From an uncultured Lachnospiraceae bacterium (GTDB taxonomy: Bacteria > Bacillota > Clostridia > Lachnospirales > Lachnospiraceae), in the NCBI GenBank assembly GCA_910585075.1, contig CAJUED010000012.1, positions 1-24,000 of the forward strand: DNA of 24,000 nt, written 5' to 3'. Position 1 is the stretch's first letter. Every line of letters begins with the position of its first letter. Positions 1,763 through 10,670 of the stretch are shown here, one piece after another. The notes under the pieces were generated by a model that saw only the letters and a list, made by a program, of their open reading frames with translations, was not told where the DNA came from and searched no databases. The position numbers were made by a program, and so were the translations under genes.

Positions 1763-3448
1763 GTGAAATTTAATTCTGTGACAATAAAGAATTTCAGGAA
1801 TTTTGAAGATATATCAATAAACTTAACCAATAAAAACGTCCTTTTTGGGATGAATGATGTAGGTAAGACAAACTTTCTGTATGCGTTAAGATTTATTTTC
1901 GATAAAGACATCAGAAAACAGAACTTCAATGATACGGATTACTACAAAAAGAATGTGGCTAATCCAATAGAGATTGTTATTGCAATTGATATTAGCGATA
2001 CAGAAGATGCAGATAGTCAAAAACTGCGTGCAAAATTGAAAGGCGCTATCCTTTCGGATCAGAATATTGTATATATCAAACTAATAGCCGATTATGACAA
2101 AAAGGAAATGATTGGCATTCCTGTTTTATACTGGGGTGGAGATATTGAAGATCTTGAAGAGATGAAAGTTCACGGCACATTCTTTGAGATTGATTATGTC
2201 TTTAATGTGATTTATATTGATGCATATGTTGATTTATATACACTATTTAAAAAGAATGCTAATACGCTACTTGTTAATGATAAGGAACAGGATAAAGATA
2301 TTTTAGAACGTATTGATAAGACATGTGACGAATTAAATACTCAGATATCTGGATTGTCCGGCATAAAGACTTTTGAAGAAAAAATTGCACCCGAATATAA
2401 AAAGTTTAGGCATGACGATATATCCGTGTCTGTAAAATCAGAAATAGCAGTAAAAGGTTTATATTCGAATATCGTTCCTTATATTAAACAAGATACTGAC
2501 GATTCTTTATATCCGACGTCTGGTGAGGGACGCAAAAAGCTTTTGGTATACGCTATTTTTGATTTACTCTCTAAAGAGGAAGAAGAAAAGAAAATCACTA
2601 TTTTTTTAATCGAAGAACCAGAAAACCATCTGCACCGTTCTATGCAGATAGCATTATCCCATATTTTATTTCTTGATAACAAATATCAATATTTGTTTAT
2701 GACAACTCATTCACCTTATGTCCTGGCAGAAATGGATCAGGTAAATCTGGTTCGAATATATAATGAAGACAAAATCGTGAGCAAAAGTGTTCTTTATACA
2801 GTGCCTGCTGAATTTAAAAGCCAAAGAAAAATGCTGAACAGAGGGCTGATAGAAGCTATTTTTGCTGATAAAGTGTTGCTTGTTGAAGGACCATCTGAAA
2901 ATGTTTTATTTGGAAAAGTATTGTCAGAGATAAACCCATTTTATGAAGCAGACGGAATTTACATACTTCCAGTAGGAGGATTTGGATTCAAGCCATATTA
3001 TCAGATATTAGATGCTTTGCAGATCGAAAATATTATTAAAACTGACAATGATTTGAGAAAGATAAAGGGAAAAGAAAAATATAGTGTATTAGGTTTTTCA
3101 AGATTAAATAATTATATAGGGAAAAAAATTCTTCCAGTTACTCCTATTAGTGAAACTGGTGTTGAAGCAAAGCGAAAACTATATGACAATAATCAACAAA
3201 AACTTGATCAAATTAGATCTGAATATTCAATCTATCTATCAAGATGTAGCCTGGAGGAAGATTTGGATGAAGTAATTCATGACCAGATGATTTCATACCT
3301 ACCTAATGCAGATGGGGATGTAATTGGATATTTGCAAGACGCTAAAAATAATCATATGGTTGAACTTGTTGAAAAACTTACAATAGAGGATTGTAAATGC
3401 ATTTATGAACACTATAACTTTGCTTGTTTAAAGGAGGTAATGCAGTAA
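1763..3448 (+). CDS. gajA: GajA, Gabija ATP-dependent OLD-family endonuclease (N-terminal ABC-type ATPase, C-terminal Toprim)
   Basis: 561 aa. N-terminus MKFNSVTIKNFRNFEDISINL..FGMNDVGKTNFLYALRF carries the Walker A motif. LIEEPENHLHRS is the Walker B/D-loop. VLLVEGPSENVLF..KTDND is the Toprim domain. C-terminus reads EHYNFACLKE. From memory these blocks closely parallel Bacillus cereus VD045 GajA; no alignment was computed. Confidence 0.9.
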   Translation: MKFNSVTIKNFRNFEDISINLTNKNVLFGMNDVGKTNFLYALRFIFDKDIRKQNFNDTDYYKKNVANPIEIVIAIDISDTEDADSQKLRAKLKGAILSDQNIVYIKLIADYDKKEMIGIPVLYWGGDIEDLEEMKVHGTFFEIDYVFNVIYIDAYVDLYTLFKKNANTLLVNDKEQDKDILERIDKTCDELNTQISGLSGIKTFEEKIAPEYKKFRHDDISVSVKSEIAVKGLYSNIVPYIKQDTDDSLYPTSGEGRKKLLVYAIFDLLSKEEEEKKITIFLIEEPENHLHRSMQIALSHILFLDNKYQYLFMTTHSPYVLAEMDQVNLVRIYNEDKIVSKSVLYTVPAEFKSQRKMLNRGLIEAIFADKVLLVEGPSENVLFGKVLSEINPFYEADGIYILPVGGFGFKPYYQILDALQIENIIKTDNDLRKIKGKEKYSVLGFSRLNNYIGKKILPVTPISETGVEAKRKLYDNNQQKLDQIRSEYSIYLSRCSLEEDLDEVIHDQMISYLPNADGDVIGYLQDAKNNHMVELVEKLTIEDCKCIYEHYNFACLKEVMQ

Positions 3449-4974
3449 TGTTATCCCCTATGCAAACGGAAATTGTTGAACAACCAGGAAATCTGATTGT
3501 TAGAGCGAGTGCTGGTACAGGAAAGACACATACCATGGTATCTAAAATTGTGTATGACATAGAACATCAACATACGCACAAGGTGGTTGCTGCAATCACT
3601 TTTACAATTAAAGCAGCTAATGAGATTAAAGAACGACTAACAATAGACACAACCAGCCATTTTATTGGAACAAACAACAGTTTCGCTATTGAAGAAATTA
3701 TTAAACCTTTTATGAAGGATGTGTTCGGTAAGACATATAAACTGGATATGAGTACGGACTATTCAGTAAAAGTAAACACATTTGAAGAAGGATTGGCAAA
3801 AATCAGAGACGAACAGGTTTTATGTTCGTATGTGAACAGTAAAGAAAACTTTATATTTCAGCTTGCTTTAGATATTTTGAAAAAGTCTAAAGCGTGTCAA
3901 TTATACTTACAGGCAAAGTATTTCAAGATTTATGTTGATGAATACCAAGACTGTGATAAAGATATGCATGCTCTTTTTATGTATATCTGTGAGTCTCTGA
4001 GCATAGACACTTTTGTTGTAGGCGATGAAAAGCAATCAATTTATATGTGGCGTGGGGCATATCCCAAAGCTTTCATAGGGATTTGGAACAGAAAAGATTT
4101 TTCCAAAAAGTTCATGAGAGATAATTTTCGTTCTTGTCAGCAAATACAAAACTATTCAAATTTACTGTGTGATGAAACCAGAGATTTATATAAGCCTATA
4201 GATGATTTGTCTTCTGTGATAATGATATGTGCCACTTCGGCTAATTGGGTATCATCGGTTATTCCGTATTTAGATTCCAATGAAAAATGTGCATTACTAA
4301 GATATAGCAATGCAAATGCTGAGGCGGGAGCTATAGATTTAACGAATGGAAATATGGAGTTTACATATATCCCACAAACACCGATTGCTGATATAACTAC
4401 AGAAACAGCATGGCTTTACAATGCCGTTGCCAAATTCTTTATTCTACCGAAATATTCGGCTTATGACTTTAGAGATGAAATACCCAACGAAGTAGTTGGA
4501 AACAAGAGAATCTTAAATTACATCAAAAAGGCATTAAGCGTTTTAGAGGGATGTATAAAGCAAGAAGATGCTTCTGGCTTTGAAAAACAAATTATACTAA
4601 TGGCAAATTACTTAGGGTATGAGACAAAGTCGGATCATTGTGATAGGCTGTATAGAACAATTTGCAATCAACGATATCATCCAGCATTTAATATTGACGG
4701 ATTGAAGCGGATCGCCATTACATTTCATTCATCAAAAGGGTTGGAGTTTGAACAGGTTATTTTATTTGTATCAGATTATAGATTATCAAGTGAACAGGAG
4801 ATATATAATTATTATGTTGCTACCACACGAGCAAAATCTAAATTGATTATGGTATATATTGATGATGACTGGAACGCAACCCAGTTTGCTAAAAATATAA
4901 ATAAGATTTTCGCCGAGTCGAATTTAAAAATGAGCGACGTAGCAACTGTTATAAATTGCTTGTGCTGTAATTAA
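3448..4974 (+). CDS. gajB: GajB, Gabija UvrD/PcrA-like superfamily-1 helicase/NTPase
   Basis: Motifs: ASAGTGKTHTM (Walker A), NFIFQLALDILKKS, YVDEYQDCDKDM (motif II), VGDEKQSIYMWRG, NFRSCQQIQNYSN and HSSKGLEFEQV..ATTRAK. Start placed at ATG 3448, giving a TAATG overlap with the gajA stop, with AAGGAGG at 3431-3437. The track's TTG at 3424 is in frame but unlikely. Confidence 0.9.
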   Translation: MLSPMQTEIVEQPGNLIVRASAGTGKTHTMVSKIVYDIEHQHTHKVVAAITFTIKAANEIKERLTIDTTSHFIGTNNSFAIEEIIKPFMKDVFGKTYKLDMSTDYSVKVNTFEEGLAKIRDEQVLCSYVNSKENFIFQLALDILKKSKACQLYLQAKYFKIYVDEYQDCDKDMHALFMYICESLSIDTFVVGDEKQSIYMWRGAYPKAFIGIWNRKDFSKKFMRDNFRSCQQIQNYSNLLCDETRDLYKPIDDLSSVIMICATSANWVSSVIPYLDSNEKCALLRYSNANAEAGAIDLTNGNMEFTYIPQTPIADITTETAWLYNAVAKFFILPKYSAYDFRDEIPNEVVGNKRILNYIKKALSVLEGCIKQEDASGFEKQIILMANYLGYETKSDHCDRLYRTICNQRYHPAFNIDGLKRIAITFHSSKGLEFEQVILFVSDYRLSSEQEIYNYYVATTRAKSKLIMVYIDDDWNATQFAKNINKIFAESNLKMSDVATVINCLCCN

Positions 4975-5295
4975 ATTATTATGAAACTAGCCTAGAAAAA
5001 CAGACACAGGGATGATTATATACTATTATAGAACAAAATGGAACTGTCGAAAGTGTGACTTGAGGGCTTGAAGCGTATCCAGTAGATGGAGTAAGCAAGG
5101 CACCCAAATAGTATTTACCACCAAACAGAATAGATTGTCTTATATGAGATAATTTATTTATAATAACATGGCAGAACTTTATAAACGTTATAAAAATGAA
5201 AAATATAGTTGGATTAGTCAAGCAAATAATAAAATACCAAAAACGAATCGAAGTTTGACATAACTTAGTCAACTCAATCAGTTAGGAGTGAAAAA

Positions 5296-5889
5296 ATGAA
5301 TTTAGATTTTAACCTCGCAGATTTTTTTAAATTGCCAACAAAAATTATGTTTGCTCTTGCCCTTGCTTCTGGTCTGGTTTTGTTTCTTCCAGATAGCATA
5401 GTCACGAAAATGTATATGGTTGATTTCAGAAATAAATATGGTTTTGTCATTGGGCTACTATTTTTAATTTCTTTTTCAATACTTGTAGTCACTGTTTTTA
5501 TAGGCATATATAAGTATTTTAATCATTTATATTTTATGAAGAAATTCAGAGCAACTGCAAAAGAAAGACTACAAAAGTTGGATAATTACCAAAAAGCAAT
5601 CGTGTATGGTCTGTATATGGAAGATAACCACACTGGCGAATTACCATTACATGACGGGGCTGTAAAATTGCTTAAGCAAAATATAATAATTACAGAAACC
5701 ACAAATCAATATGCTGTATCAGATTTAAACAATGCTGTTTTTCCTTATATGTTGCACCCATGGGTTATTGAAGAACTTCAAAAAGATAGTGAGTTGCTTT
5801 CCATTTTTAATGCAGCATATAAAGAAATGAATAATAAATACAAACTTCAAAGTCAATATGAGTCCTCATACCTTGACTTTCCGTACTAA
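5296..5889 (+). CDS. Two-TM membrane protein, superinfection-exclusion-B (SieB)-like; function unproven
   Basis: 197 aa with AGGAG Shine-Dalgarno at 5284-5288. Two hydrophobic helices (KIMFALALASGLVLFL; GFVIGLLFLISFSILVVTVFIGIY) are followed by a soluble domain, LDNYQKAIVYGLY...GELPLHDGAVKLLKQNIII. This layout resembles my recollection of Pfam SieB. It shares the AT-rich composition and strand of Gabija. Confidence 0.55.
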   Translation: MNLDFNLADFFKLPTKIMFALALASGLVLFLPDSIVTKMYMVDFRNKYGFVIGLLFLISFSILVVTVFIGIYKYFNHLYFMKKFRATAKERLQKLDNYQKAIVYGLYMEDNHTGELPLHDGAVKLLKQNIIITETTNQYAVSDLNNAVFPYMLHPWVIEELQKDSELLSIFNAAYKEMNNKYKLQSQYESSYLDFPY

Positions 5890-6067
5890 TCTATCAAGGA
5901 ATAATGAATTTTCTTATTGTCCTTTTTAATTGATAGTTATTTTTGATAAAATACGGTTCAACGGGTTGCTGGTTACCCACTCTTATAGACAGCTGATCAT
6001 TCCAGCACTTTAATGAAGAATTTAGAAAGTAACATATTAACCAGCTTGAATAGAAAAAGCATATAGT

Positions 6068-6112
6068 AAAATGGTCTAAGAAACCTGCATTTTCGGTTCC
6101 CTAGACCATTTT
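6068..6112. terminator. Bidirectional hairpin terminator between the convergent SieB-like and abiEii genes
   Basis: Perfect 11-bp stem AAAATGGTCTA (6068-6078) / TAGACCATTTT (6102-6112) with a 23-nt loop. A/T runs are built into both arms. It lies 8 nt beyond the abiEii stop. Confidence 0.5.
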
Positions 6113-6119
6113 ATTAGCT

Positions 6120-7043
6120 TCAATAAAAATTACTGAAATAGTCTCTACTGATAATTTCTCCTATTCCTCCTATAACCGTTTCGTAAGGAAGATATGTAAA
6201 CAACATCCTGCCTGTAATCTCTTCATAATCATTCCGGTATATTTCCTTATCCACAATTTCTGTCAAAAGGTCATTGATACATACCTCTTTTTGGGCAGAC
6301 GGACAGACCGGAAGAGGTTCCCGCAGGCATCGTACTTCCTTAACAAGCTCTGACAATGAAACATCTGGCGTTGTGTATTCCAGGATCTTATAGATATCAT
6401 ATAAATGTCGAGAATGCCGCTCTACCTTGCCAGACAGATAATAGTCACAGAGGGCAAAGACTTTATCAATAAGAGTCCGCTCAATCGCCTGGGTTGTGAT
6501 TTCAAAAGGCATAAGGTCAAATTCTTCTGCCAGTTCTTCCCGTCCTGCCATTTTCAGAAAACGATAAATATAGTTGTCAGCAATCCGATTTACTGTTGGA
6601 AACGGCAGGAGGGCAATATAGGTCTCGATGACCAGTTCCGGCTTTAATTCCAAAAGCGGGGAATAAATGCTGGGATAGCTGGCCTTGTAACAGTTATAAC
6701 TACGCCGGCTGCGGGTTTCTTCAAGGTTTGCAACAGAAAACCCAAGGGATTCTACAGAAGAAACCACCGCCTTTTTTAACTGACGCTTGCGGCTTTCGCC
6801 AGGAATGCCGTCTGATGCCGCATAAGAAATATCAATATCCTCCGAAAAACGATCCAGAATCTGATAGCACTTTGTAAGCGAGGTCCCTCCTTTAAAGACC
6901 ATTCCCTTCACCCTGGCGGCCAACTCTTTAAGAACAAGTGTAACATAATAATCTTTCTCAATGATTCCGGGCGGTATGTGCAGTTCGTTGGAAGCGGCAA
7001 CAACCAGTTCGCTGAATGCTTCCTTGTCATGATGTAAATTCAT
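6120..7043 (-). CDS. abiEii: AbiEii/AbiGii-family nucleotidyltransferase toxin (type IV TA / abortive infection)
   Basis: Carries FKGGTSLTKCY...RFSEDIDI, the signature of DUF1814/AbiEii nucleotidyltransferases. Start taken as ATG 7043 (MNLHHDKEAF), which overlaps the abiEi stop by 17 nt. The track's TTG at 7061 is less likely. Confidence 0.85.
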   Translation of the reverse strand: MNLHHDKEAFSELVVAASNELHIPPGIIEKDYYVTLVLKELAARVKGMVFKGGTSLTKCYQILDRFSEDIDISYAASDGIPGESRKRQLKKAVVSSVESLGFSVANLEETRSRRSYNCYKASYPSIYSPLLELKPELVIETYIALLPFPTVNRIADNYIYRFLKMAGREELAEEFDLMPFEITTQAIERTLIDKVFALCDYYLSGKVERHSRHLYDIYKILEYTTPDVSLSELVKEVRCLREPLPVCPSAQKEVCINDLLTEIVDKEIYRNDYEEITGRMLFTYLPYETVIGGIGEIISRDYFSNFY

Positions 7044-7653
7044 AAATAATACCCCATTCAATCAGTTTTTTTGCGGTAGACCCTGTAATGCCGGGCAGCA
7101 CGCCGGAAAGAAGAGCCTTGCTGTAATTTTTCTGTTTTGCATAGTTTTTTAAAAGCGCTCCGGTTTCTGCATCTGAAAGCTCCGAATATTTTTCTGCCTG
7201 GGAAACAGCATCAAGAAACTGGAGCAGTCCCGCATTTTCAGATGTTATAGCAACAGCTGGACGTTTCAGCCGGACGTTTTGGGAACCGACAGTAACATTG
7301 CGCCCTTTTGTCGCTTCTTTCGATGTTATGATTTCCAGTATAGCCGGCATCTGGGTCGTCAGGCCAATCTGGTTAGCAAACGTAGCTCCGGCGAAATAAC
7401 CGTAGACTTCTGTTGTGTTTTGGATATATTTGCGTATAATGACCTTCATGGGGTCTAAATAACTTTTTTTCAGCAGACGTGATGCTTTGGGAAGATAATA
7501 GATCCCAGTATCAAACCGGGCAAGGTCACCGGATTTGAGCATCCGTTTAAAATACTGACGCAGGGCATTATCATTGATTCCGTCCAGCCGGATCTCGTTA
7601 ATGAAAATCGGTTCATTGTAACCATAGTTTTTTTCCAGATATTCTTTCAGCAT
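7027..7653 (-). CDS. abiEi: AbiEi-family antitoxin / transcriptional regulator (type IV TA)
   Basis: N-terminal winged-helix-like region with ...SGDLARFDTGIYYLP, typical of AbiEi_4/DUF6088 proteins. It sits directly upstream of, and overlaps, abiEii. Start preferred at ATG 7653 (MLKEYLEK), which has GGAAGGAG upstream. ATG 7680 has no Shine-Dalgarno and would lie inside the predicted promoter. Confidence 0.75.
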   Translation of the reverse strand: MLKEYLEKNYGYNEPIFINEIRLDGINDNALRQYFKRMLKSGDLARFDTGIYYLPKASRLLKKSYLDPMKVIIRKYIQNTTEVYGYFAGATFANQIGLTTQMPAILEIITSKEATKGRNVTVGSQNVRLKRPAVAITSENAGLLQFLDAVSQAEKYSELSDAETGALLKNYAKQKNYSKALLSGVLPGITGSTAKKLIEWGIIYEFTS

Positions 7654-7682
7654 ACAGGCATCCACTCCTTCCACCTCCATAC

Positions 7683-7846: not shown

Positions 7847-8371
7847 TTACAGTTCCGTATCTGCCCGGTCATAGTACAAATGCCCCTGTGCCACTTTCGC
7901 ATGGTTCAAAATCAGTATGAAATGCCTGTCCTGGTTCTCCAATGCCTTTTTATATCCGGTTTTCGTCAGAAACAGTCTCATCCGACTCCCTTTATCCCCT
8001 ATGGGAGACTTTTCCGAAAGTACATCAAACACAATCATATGCTCTACTTCCGGATCAAAGCGTTCCAATGCCATGATATCATGTCCTTCCAGCTTCCGGG
8101 CACCGGATTTCTGCCGGGCCACAGCAATCATTTCCCCGACAGTCCTTGCGCTATGGGGCAGATGATAATTTCTCTGAATGTCACAGATCAGTTCTCTGCA
8201 GTCATCCTCCGAAAGTTCACGCAGTTTCTTTAACAGATTTTCTGCAGTATCCTTTTTATCATGGTCACGGGTATACCTGCAGAATACAGCAATCTCCTGT
8301 ATTGCATCATATCTGCCGCACCCCTCCAGCTGAAAGACCATCCTTTTCTCATCTTCAGTCAATGTTATCAT
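7847..8371 (-). CDS. TTRAP-like (transposon-transfer assisting) N-terminal domain fused to an uncharacterised C-terminal domain
   Basis: Start placed at ATG 8371 (MITLTEDEKRMVFQLEGCGRYDAIQEI...) with GGAGGA at 8377-8382. The N-terminal roughly 70 aa follow the TTRAP pattern as I recall it (xTxEExxxxxxx....L..L..LSDxD). I do not recognise the C-terminal roughly 100 aa. Confidence 0.5.
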   Translation of the reverse strand: MITLTEDEKRMVFQLEGCGRYDAIQEIAVFCRYTRDHDKKDTAENLLKKLRELSEDDCRELICDIQRNYHLPHSARTVGEMIAVARQKSGARKLEGHDIMALERFDPEVEHMIVFDVLSEKSPIGDKGSRMRLFLTKTGYKKALENQDRHFILILNHAKVAQGHLYYDRADTEL

Positions 8372-8419
8372 ATATTTCCTCCAATCCATAATTGCCTGTA
8401 TATTTCATATAGCTGCCTG

Positions 8420-8965
8420 TTATTGCTCTCTGGCATCCTTATCATCCGGAAAGAACTTCTCCAGAATGTCGATACTGTCTTTGGATGTATACCCCCACAA
8501 GATAGAGCTGAGTGCGTCAATCGCCTCCCGTCTTCTGCGGTAATAAGTGCGGAAACTGATATCCCGGATATGGGGGCGCAGTTTCTCTATGATTTCCTCC
8601 ACATTCCGCAACTGTTGTGGAGAAAGGAAAGAGTAATACAGCAGCCAGTAATAGCTCTCCCCATTCTTGTGTTTAGTGCGGAGCAGGTCGATGGAAGTAT
8701 CCAGTAGTTTCAGCATCCGGTGGCTCCGTTCAATGCATTTGGCGTGATGTTCGATACTGCGGTCTGACAGATCGATCCCGGCAACATAGACGGACTCCAG
8801 AAAGTCCTCAATGGAACTGCCGTATTCAATCTCGAACCGGCTCCGTACCTGCTGGACGGACAGTTCCAAGCTCCACACCACATCCCTGTATTTCTTCAGC
8901 AGTTTCCAGGTATCATGGTACAGCGGGTTGTCAGTGATGTTCATTTCTTCCTGATTCTTTTTCAT
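8420..8965 (-). CDS. Sigma-70 region-4 / ArpU-like transcriptional regulator of the mobile element
   Basis: 181 aa. The C-terminal ...ISFRTYYRRRREAIDALSSILWG resembles the HTH tail of ArpU/sigma-like regulators found in clostridial conjugative transposons. ATGA overlap with the upstream HTH gene (8962-8965). Shine-Dalgarno GGGGGAG is present. Confidence 0.5.
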   Translation of the reverse strand: MKKNQEEMNITDNPLYHDTWKLLKKYRDVVWSLELSVQQVRSRFEIEYGSSIEDFLESVYVAGIDLSDRSIEHHAKCIERSHRMLKLLDTSIDLLRTKHKNGESYYWLLYYSFLSPQQLRNVEEIIEKLRPHIRDISFRTYYRRRREAIDALSSILWGYTSKDSIDILEKFFPDDKDAREQ

Positions 8966-10119
8966 GCTCTTTCTCCCCCTTCCTCATTCTTTTCAGCAGG
9001 CATGAGAACCAGCTCAAAAGTGTAGACTGGCTTATCTTCTCCGCAGCATACCGCCATTCCAAAACGTACTGCAGTCTTTGGTGTATGACATATATACTCT
9101 TCCCTGCAGGCGTCTGATAAAGGATATAACTTATATATAGATTTCTGGCACTGAAAACAGGAAATTCCCTGTGCATCAAGGACTTGCGCTATTTTTCTGA
9201 TAACAGCATCCATGTCTGATTTTGAAACGCAGGATAATTCTTCTGAAACGCATGCCTCATACCCAGTAACAACAGAATCTGCCTGCGGCTCTTCTTTATC
9301 CGGCAGCGTGATATTGATTTTCAGGATCATGGCAACCTCCTCTTTATCCACAAGAACATCTGATATCTGGAACATGGTGGAAAGATAGCTGTGCAGATAG
9401 ATCACACTGCCTGTTTTTCCGGGAAATGACATGAGAGAAATATAGTCCATGTCAGCAAGTTTTTTCAGCACACGCCCTGTCGTGGCTTTGGAGATGCCCC
9501 AGCGGGCAGCCATCTCACTGTAAGCCACTAACGGGGAGCCGGTGCCATTGCGGAAGTAAGCAACCGGGCCAATCTCCGAACCCTGCACCTGGCTGTCATT
9601 GTAGACAGCAGACATCCACAGATCCAGCAGGATATCCATTTCGGAACAGCGGCCGGCGCTGACCAGTTCGGTTGCAACAACAACCGGCATAAAGAAAAAG
9701 CCCGTATCTTTCTGACAGGGGCAGTTGTAATCCAGTACCGTATTCTGTTTTTTCCAGTCACGGATCTTATATTTGATTACCTTCCCACGGTCGAGGAAGA
9801 GATAGGAGATCAGGTGGCGTTTCTGCAGCTCGTCCAGGATGGAGACTGCCTGGCACTGGAAACGGGTACGGAACCATGCAGACAGTTCCTTTACGGTACA
9901 GATCCACTCGCCGGGATATACCGTATAGCCGATTCCATCTATACGGAGATAAGAGGTACGGAAGTTTGCATAGTTGCAGAGCACCGTATAATAAAACAGA
10001 CCGGAGCCTCCATTTGTACGAATGCTCCGGTCTGCCATTAAGTTCTGGATAAACTGCCGATAGATCCGGCAGCGTGGATAATCCACAATCTGTTTGATTT
10101 CTAATTGATATTCTGACAT
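8962..10119 (-). CDS. Helix-turn-helix (winged-helix) domain protein of the element; putative replication or regulatory function
   Basis: Start at ATG 10119 (MSEYQLEIKQIVDYPRCRIY...) with AGGAGAAAATC upstream; the track's 10209 start lacks a Shine-Dalgarno. Internal HTH reads YSEMAARWGISKATTGRVLKKLADMDYISL. Translationally coupled to the sigma-like gene. Confidence 0.6.
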   Translation of the reverse strand: MSEYQLEIKQIVDYPRCRIYRQFIQNLMADRSIRTNGGSGLFYYTVLCNYANFRTSYLRIDGIGYTVYPGEWICTVKELSAWFRTRFQCQAVSILDELQKRHLISYLFLDRGKVIKYKIRDWKKQNTVLDYNCPCQKDTGFFFMPVVVATELVSAGRCSEMDILLDLWMSAVYNDSQVQGSEIGPVAYFRNGTGSPLVAYSEMAARWGISKATTGRVLKKLADMDYISLMSFPGKTGSVIYLHSYLSTMFQISDVLVDKEEVAMILKINITLPDKEEPQADSVVTGYEACVSEELSCVSKSDMDAVIRKIAQVLDAQGISCFQCQKSIYKLYPLSDACREEYICHTPKTAVRFGMAVCCGEDKPVYTFELVLMPAEKNEEGGERA

Positions 10120-10397: not shown

Positions 10398-10670
10398 CTA
10401 GTAGCTTACAAAGTACTCCACCGCATTCTCAGGGAAGAACTCCTTGAACTCGCCGTACAACTGTCCGGCCAGGGTTTTATTGTGGGCTATTACCAAAGTA
10501 GGCTTGTTTATAGCGGCAATCACATTTGCCATGGTAAAGGTCTTTCCGGAACCCGTTACCCCCAGTAAAGTCTGGAATTGATTGCCTTCTTTGAAGCCTT
10601 TGACCAGGGCTTCTATGGCCTGCGGCTGGTCGCCGGTAGGCTTATATTCACTGTGCAGTTTAAACTCCAT
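10398..10670 (-). pseudogene. uvrB: uvrB 5' fragment (excinuclease ABC subunit B, first 90 codons only), interrupted by the mobile element
   Basis: [52 protein letters not shown]...[14 protein letters not shown] is the canonical UvrB N-terminus including Walker A. Full-length UvrB is about 660 aa and continues YYDYYQPEAY. Here a TAG follows at 10398-10400 and the downstream DNA is unrelated. Confidence 0.85.

Follow-up and report, generated by a model that had tools for sequence, protein, structure and literature searches.

The sieB locus and its immediate surroundings

The open reading frame at 5296-5889 on the plus strand (ATG at 5296, TAA at 5887-5889) encodes a 197-aa protein that we assign to the SieB family (PF14163). 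Its ATG is preceded by a Shine-Dalgarno sequence, AGGAG (5284-5288, plus strand), which lies 7 nt 5' of the start codon and has been kept with the gene in every context that we surveyed. The window, by which we mean the whole 24,000-nt stretch analysed, is the first 24 kb of its contig in a genome of 4.4 Mb in 126 contigs, and a genome-wide six-frame search with PF14163 found sieB there in a single copy. Upstream and on the same strand lie the two genes of a Gabija system, gajA (1763-3448) and gajB (3448-4974), which together span 1763-4974 and are recognised by PADLOC with E values of 5e-233 and 3e-183, respectively. They are separated from sieB by a gap of 321 nt (4975-5295). Downstream, Pfam and PADLOC identify an AbiE pair on the minus strand (6120-7680) consisting of abiEii (6120-7061), which directly follows sieB and is convergent with it, and abiEi (7027-7680). 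Both systems are neighbours that fall outside the sieB unit as it is defined below. GC content is 0.31-0.34 over 2001-6000, whereas most of the window outside this block has values of 0.42-0.51. The position and strand of the gene, the 321-nt gap and the AT-rich block shared with gajAB that were described in the initial annotation are thus borne out by the reading frame, the PADLOC calls and the GC content of 31-34%. Pfam annotation of the neighbourhood revealed no phage genes. Beyond the AbiE pair, the product of an open reading frame at 7847-8389 contains DUF5720 (E 2e-41), weakly matches TTRAP (transposon-transfer assisting protein) and therefore marks the backbone of a mobile element that bears the defence genes as cargo. 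A 90-aa helicase (ResIII) fragment is encoded farther on, at 10398-10670, and past it lie housekeeping genes.

The 321-nt gap between gajB and sieB consists mostly of a 285-nt insert (4985-5269) that is missing from two otherwise collinear sister islands (L027 and L023), which have about 85 nt between the two genes. The insert holds the best sigma-70-like promoter match of the region, TTGTCT-18-TATAAT (5135-5164, plus strand; 10 of 12 positions), which is a match to the consensus only, in a region no richer in such sites than shuffled sequences. No other copy of the insert was found in the genome. An RNA element or an additional gene in the gap was considered and rejected because Rfam returned no match, predicted folding was ordinary (z -0.11), a 97-aa open reading frame on the minus strand resembles noise and the insert, which makes up most of the gap, contains no credible reading frame. 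A search for terminator-like sites after gajB detected none, and sieB may be transcribed by read-through from gajAB. At the other end of the gene, a weak hairpin followed by a U-run (5891-5936, plus strand; -9.9 kcal/mol, z -2.4) lies within the tail that travels with sieB. A much stronger hairpin (6064-6116; -21.1 kcal/mol, z -6.0, with 0 of 200 shuffles as stable) lies where sieB and abiEii converge and is a probable bidirectional terminator. The segment 6034-7012, comprising the abiEii toxin gene and this hairpin, is absent from the two sister islands, which retain only abiEi (82-89% identical); the AbiEii toxin was either lost there or gained in the window. Antisense promoter-like sites, of the kind that could drive an antisense RNA like sas, are no commoner at the locus than in shuffles.

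Family membership and predicted architecture

The 197-aa protein matches PF14163 with 115.1 bits (E 2.6e-33), far above the curated gathering score of 26 bits that serves as the cut-off, and residues 18-164 align with profile positions 1-146 of 147. No other Pfam family was reported at E<=0.1. The same profile recognises lambda SieB with 103.5 bits (1e-29) and P22 SieB with 101.4 bits (4e-29), so that the family name carries the phenotype of these two proteins. Pairwise comparisons are less telling: BLASTP found no similarity between the 197-aa protein and lambda SieB, while hhalign with a profile of 91 homologues gave a probability of 80% (E 1.4e-5) for lambda SieB and only 6% for the single P22 SieB sequence. 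Homology to the characterised proteins thus rests on the Pfam profile. Eighty-seven close homologues, distributed from Clostridia to Bacillaceae, all contain PF14163 and bear the NCBI name "superinfection exclusion B family protein", and at E<=1e-3 a broader search returned 889 representatives out of 1.84 billion. The protein is not represented among the PADLOC models, and the sole match here, a marginal one to ThsA1 (E 0.008) confined to the transmembrane region, was set aside as compositional. Judged by its sequence, the product of the open reading frame is a true SieB-family protein.

The assignment to SieB/PF14163 that the initial annotation had offered as a weak one was therefore correct, with 115 bits, an E value of 2.6e-33 and a match over the full profile. 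To call the gene the best candidate in the window for an undescribed defence function was an overstatement, since the family is known and its homologues are already named superinfection exclusion B by NCBI. The accompanying remark that SieB proteins of Firmicutes are essentially uncharacterised agrees with our literature search, which found no paper describing one. What is already known, then, is the SieB family itself and its routine annotation. What we regard as modestly new is the carriage of the Firmicute clade by integrative and conjugative elements (ICEs), islands and plasmids rather than phages, with a conserved slot in the Tn916 family; the behaviour of the gene as a one-gene cassette; and, with modest structural support, the interpretation of the cytoplasmic domain as MarR-like.

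AlphaFold2, supplied with the 91-sequence alignment, predicts the full-length protein with a pLDDT of 95.3 and a pTM of 0.78. The model begins with an N-terminal peptide (residues 1-14), followed by a helix at 15-30 (TM1), a short outer loop and a long helix at 42-86 that includes TM2 (about 50-72) and is predicted to run on as a basic cytoplasmic stalk. The remaining elements are a helix at 97-108, a strand at 113-117, a helix at 121-128, strands at 132-134 and 148-153, and helices at 155-163 and 165-193. In the alignments, the N-terminal peptide (aa 1-16; 5296-5343, plus strand) displays a D..KLP..I motif that is conserved even in the broad set of 91 sequences (25-60% identity), and it corresponds to the segment absent from P22 Esc. 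The transmembrane hairpin (5344-5511, plus strand), which is apparent from hydropathy as well as from the model, comprises TM1 (about aa 17-31), an 18-aa outer loop and TM2 (about aa 50-72). The two N-terminal transmembrane helices and the soluble part of about 110 aa expected from the initial annotation are thus recovered by both approaches, the C-terminal domain measuring 114 aa. Residues 73-100, which follow TM2, have a net charge of +6, and by the positive-inside rule this places the C-terminal domain, and hence also the N-terminus, in the cytoplasm. We infer a topology in which both termini face the cell interior.

The C-terminal domain (aa 84-197; 5545-5886, plus strand; pLDDT 94.6) ends in two long helices and is predicted to adopt a MarR-like winged-helix fold. 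When the full model was compared with the PDB using Foldseek, the top matches were exclusively MarR-type regulators (E about 0.02, probability 0.97), and with the isolated domain all 50 of the top 50 matches were of this type (E 0.008-0.15, TMq 0.40-0.49). Among viral models (BFVD) the best match was P22 SieB itself (Q38660; probability 0.99, TM 0.39), followed by phage MarR/PadR-like proteins. These comparisons lend modest support to a domain built of a MarR-like winged helix with flanking helices, the latter being the part that forms the dimer interface in MarR proteins. The protein shares with MarR regulators the predicted order of helix, winged helix and two helices, and MarR-type structures were the only ones retrieved. 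It differs from them in the lack of any sequence match, in TM-scores below 0.5, in the tethering of the domain to the membrane and in the composition of the putative wing (about residues 135-147), which has no basic residues and thereby makes DNA binding doubtful.

A near-invariant methionine, Met18 (5347-5349), marks the start of TM1 and aligns with the first position of the Pfam profile and with M25 of lambda SieB. It also falls near the start of P22 Esc (M25), which according to the annotation of the P22 record begins at SieB codon 25 and so is made without the first 24 residues. An Esc-like internal start at Met18 is nevertheless unsupported, because no Shine-Dalgarno sequence precedes this codon despite its alignment near the Esc start.

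sieB as a one-gene cassette in diverse mobile contexts

To place the gene within its clade, loci were gathered by exact-protein look-ups, by scanning 185,579 species genomes (which yielded 17 loci) and from plasmids, and their neighbours were annotated with Pfam, PADLOC and tblastn; after dereplication, about 15 loci underlie the resulting survey. The arrangement of the window, an island with the order gajA-gajB-sieB-abiEi, recurs in a few relatives (L002/L003, L027 and L023), with identities of 93% for GajA, 90% for GajB and 85% for SieB. A second and larger group consists of ICEs of the Tn916 family (L004-L009, L011-L015, L024-L026, L028 and L029), in which sieB always occupies one slot, flanked by the FtsK-like orf21 on one side and the DUF961 genes on the other, is read from the opposite strand and is not accompanied by Gabija. 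These copies come from many gut metagenomes and from Fumia, Erysipelotrichales, Eubacteriaceae, Neobacillus and Amphibacillus, and range from Clostridia to Bacilli. Some of them are 80-82% identical to the SieB of the window and occupy the interval between orf21/FtsK and DUF961 alone, as in the slot at L004:8519-11335, and across the group the divergence of sieB parallels that of the element backbone.

The other contexts are varied. At one locus (L010) a gene 88% identical to that of the window follows RhuM/PDC-S05, and at another (L019) a homologue whose product is 61% identical to the window protein is followed by a different, larger Gabija subtype and then AbiA. The latter region, a defence island (L019:9001-18588), reads, in order, a sieB-like gene, a 41-aa open reading frame, the large Gabija subtype (686 and 646 aa), a 203-aa open reading frame, AbiA (RT plus HEPN) and an AAA_15 ATPase. 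Elsewhere, sieB comes directly after VirD4/TraG in an ICE with a type IV secretion system (T4SS; L020), resides in a Priestia island with type I restriction-modification and serine recombinases (L021/L022), is embedded in the series HsdR-sieB-SIR2-HerA (L030), follows HEC-06/GmrSD (L035) or DRT UG31 (L036), or lies beside an RT (L032). Further copies include a truncated one beside PDC-S49 (L039), one near an integrase fragment (L037) and several on small and large plasmids of Carnobacterium, Bacillus and Enterococcus (H2-H10).

In Bacillus yapensis (L031:1990-13921), a TniQ-like gene of the Tn7 type lies upstream of PifA (KAP NTPase), a sieB-like gene, DUF5677 and PDC-S06 (AAA_13), so that the order TniQ ... 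PifA-sieB-DUF5677-PDC-S06 looks like a transposon cargo of defence genes; the same 720-aa open reading frame is found upstream at another locus (L033). A Planococcus locus (L038:7450-11479) has the order PycTM-PycC-sieB ... HsdR, with two PycC cyclases (one of them divergent) and one PycTM upstream, a PycC-sieB gap of 17 nt, and a 266-aa open reading frame without matches followed by the type I HsdR downstream. The idea that SieB acts there as a Pycsar effector, suggested by its position right after PycC, was rejected because a genuine PycTM (8486-8998, E 1e-29) lies beyond the cyclase and SieB itself does not match PycTM. On the Enterococcus faecium plasmid pXD5 (L046:3983-4360), a 125-aa SieB remnant consisting of the soluble domain only stands directly behind a transposase and ahead of a helicase, a PD-(D/E)XK nuclease and a methyltransferase, in what is probably a plasmid defence cluster. 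We considered whether such soluble-domain-only plasmid homologues from Enterococcus might be Esc-like inhibitors and rejected this as well, the pXD5 copy behind its transposase being probably the result of truncation by an insertion sequence.

Outside the ICEs, the immediate neighbour of sieB is recognised by PADLOC in most contexts. The link to defence islands proposed in the initial annotation is supported by these neighbours, which include AbiE, AbiA, SIR2-HerA, PifA, DRT, GmrSD, type I restriction-modification, Pycsar and RhuM/PDC-S05. Phage structural genes were seen in none of the surveyed sieB neighbourhoods, and tblastn against 50,697 phage records returned a single, partial match. The clade is thus nearly absent from sequenced phages, and its biology may accordingly differ from that of prophage-borne SieB.

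Nucleotide comparisons define the unit that has moved among these contexts. Using blastn, homology between the window and the RhuM/PDC-S05 locus (L010) is confined to 5276-5968 (87%), and that between the window and a Tn916-family element (L004) to 5281-5927 (82%); with one of the sister islands (L027), the segment around the gene matches over 5270-6033 (86%). The DNA shared between contexts therefore amounts to the gene with about 20 nt before it and 40-145 nt after it, which means that the mobile unit is a ribosome-binding site, an open reading frame and a 40-145-nt tail with a weak hairpin. Promoters are provided locally. sieB has thus been shown to travel as a single-gene cassette, and its carriers include defence islands, Tn916-family ICEs, a T4SS ICE, a Tn7-like element and plasmids.

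The gene carried in this way is real and under purifying selection rather than a chance reading frame, as dN/dS was 0.11-0.25 against eight orthologues with dS values of up to about 1. It is also rare: matches to PF14163 above the cut-off were found in 2 of 301 genomes sampled from the same order, the window genome included, whereas the 31 other genomes from the same family yielded none. Rarity, purifying selection and the single copy in the genome together argue that sieB is not a housekeeping membrane protein. A housekeeping membrane gene scattered at random, the alternative against which the initial annotation had set its proposal, fits neither these 2 genomes in 301 nor the defence-island neighbours.

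Explanations for the function of sieB

The reading that we consider probable is that the open reading frame encodes a SieB-family protein that constitutes a self-contained, single-gene phage-exclusion module of the abortive-infection type, carried as mobile-element cargo that adjoins Gabija and AbiE and is independent of both. The repeated placement of sieB beside many unrelated systems and in ICE cargo slots points to an independent anti-phage gene rather than a Gabija subunit. The genetics of SieB go back to the 1970s, and the P22, lambda and Rac proteins belong to the same Pfam family, in which the window protein scores as well as or better than they do. The P22 and lambda proteins are similar in size (192 and 184 aa versus 197 aa here) and share a layout of a short N-terminal peptide, two transmembrane helices and a cytoplasmic helical/winged-helix domain; their genes, too, are lone mobile-element genes with their own ribosome-binding site. 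The differences lie in the setting. The gene described here is mobile-element cargo in a Firmicute host rather than a prophage gene, with relatives in ICEs, a transposon and plasmids. It is not positioned antisense within a PL operon, and neither an Esc-like start nor a sas-like antisense RNA is supported. The prophage site, the Esc start and sas control that typify P22 were thus not found at this locus, and they are features of the P22 system, not of PF14163.

Other small defence proteins offer instructive comparisons. SpbK of ICEBs1, a TIR-domain protein, and the lactococcal Abi proteins are likewise encoded by single accessory genes on conjugative elements or islands and presumably protect against phages; their protein families are unrelated to the window protein with its two-TM hairpin and winged-helix domain. 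PycTM, the 2TM effectors of CBASS and TM-ThsA resemble it in being small, in combining two transmembrane helices with a cytoplasmic domain and in residing in defence islands; in contrast to these, however, neither the window protein nor its Planococcus ortholog (L038) is matched by a PycTM or other effector model.

Among the alternatives, we think it quite unlikely that sieB is a gene for competition between mobile elements, for example one with which its carrier ICE bars the entry of other conjugative elements or interferes with them on arrival. A fixed slot beside the coupling-protein gene, found in diverged ICEs of the Tn916 family all the way from Clostridia to Bacilli and with sieB divergence tracking the backbone, would suit such a role, as would the position directly after VirD4/TraG in the T4SS-type ICE (L020) and the near absence of the gene from phage genomes. 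Many copies, however, are located in islands that have no conjugation genes and are flanked by anti-phage systems, and phage exclusion is the sole phenotype known for the family. Moreover, no exclusion protein of a Gram-positive ICE, YddJ of ICEBs1 included, is known to be related to SieB.

Equally improbable, in our estimation, is a role outside defence as a membrane-tethered MarR-like regulator or sensor, or the status of a domesticated or inactive remnant. That the top Foldseek matches are all MarR-type transcription regulators is what speaks for a regulator, yet Pfam returns no match to a MarR/HTH model even at E<0.1, and the wing is devoid of basic residues. That the gene is under strong purifying selection and has repeatedly entered defence islands by horizontal capture speaks for an active, portable function.

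The initial annotation had left open whether the gene is a stand-alone exclusion gene or an accessory of the adjacent Gabija. The first of these options is favoured by our results and the second is not, given that relatives with 80-88% identity have no Gabija and that the DNA shared with them is the gene. A role as an accessory to this Gabija or as its third component, such as a membrane effector or a backup acting with GajAB, could be imagined from the common strand and AT-rich block, from the preservation of the gajAB-sieB order in both sister islands (L027 and L023), in which gajB and sieB stand only about 85 nt apart with no detected terminator behind gajB, and from the 61% identical homologue directly upstream of a different Gabija subtype (L019). 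A third component would be expected to show conserved co-occurrence and co-orientation with gajAB, but Gabija is near sieB in only 2 of about 15 distinct contexts, the window type and L019, and the gene order is reversed between them. Its closest relatives outside the island (80-88%) lack Gabija, homology between contexts stops at the borders of the gene, no PADLOC model for Gabija or any other system covers the SieB protein, and a literature search found no paper that links, or even names together, SieB and Gabija. Adjacency to many systems is, besides, what the general clustering of defence genes in islands leads one to expect. We therefore regard membership in Gabija as very unlikely, while its presence beside sieB in two unrelated arrangements may leave room for some functional interplay.

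Returning to an independent exclusion module, the following course of events can be envisaged for it. The SieB protein would be anchored in the membrane, its two termini facing the cytoplasm, and would probably form a dimer or oligomer through its MarR-like domain. During infection, this domain may sense a cue made by the phage, upon which the transmembrane hairpin and the conserved N-terminal peptide could compromise the membrane. By analogy with P22 SieB, macromolecular synthesis would then halt and the infection would abort. P22 SieB halts macromolecular synthesis midway in the lytic cycle of superinfecting phages (PMC10883804), and Esc guards P22 against SieB (PMC12197685). If the analogy with Esc holds, killing would require the N-terminal peptide and SieB would function as an oligomer. 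One unlikely extension of these ideas is that the SieB family as a whole consists of membrane-tethered MarR-like dimers in which the winged helix would be the phage sensor and the transmembrane hairpin with the N-terminal peptide the killing device. The Firmicute clade would then be a long-term resident of the Tn916 slot that has repeatedly been captured into defence islands, providing an ICE-borne form of abortive infection that cooperates with nucleolytic systems such as Gabija.

For annotation, the practical consequence is that the gene beside this Gabija should be scored as a separate system, which current PADLOC models miss. The Firmicute clade, being compact, highly conserved and confidently modelled, offers a tractable entry to the way in which SieB proteins sense phages and arrest infection, and the gene adds a likely anti-phage function to the cargo of the Tn916-family elements of gut Firmicutes.
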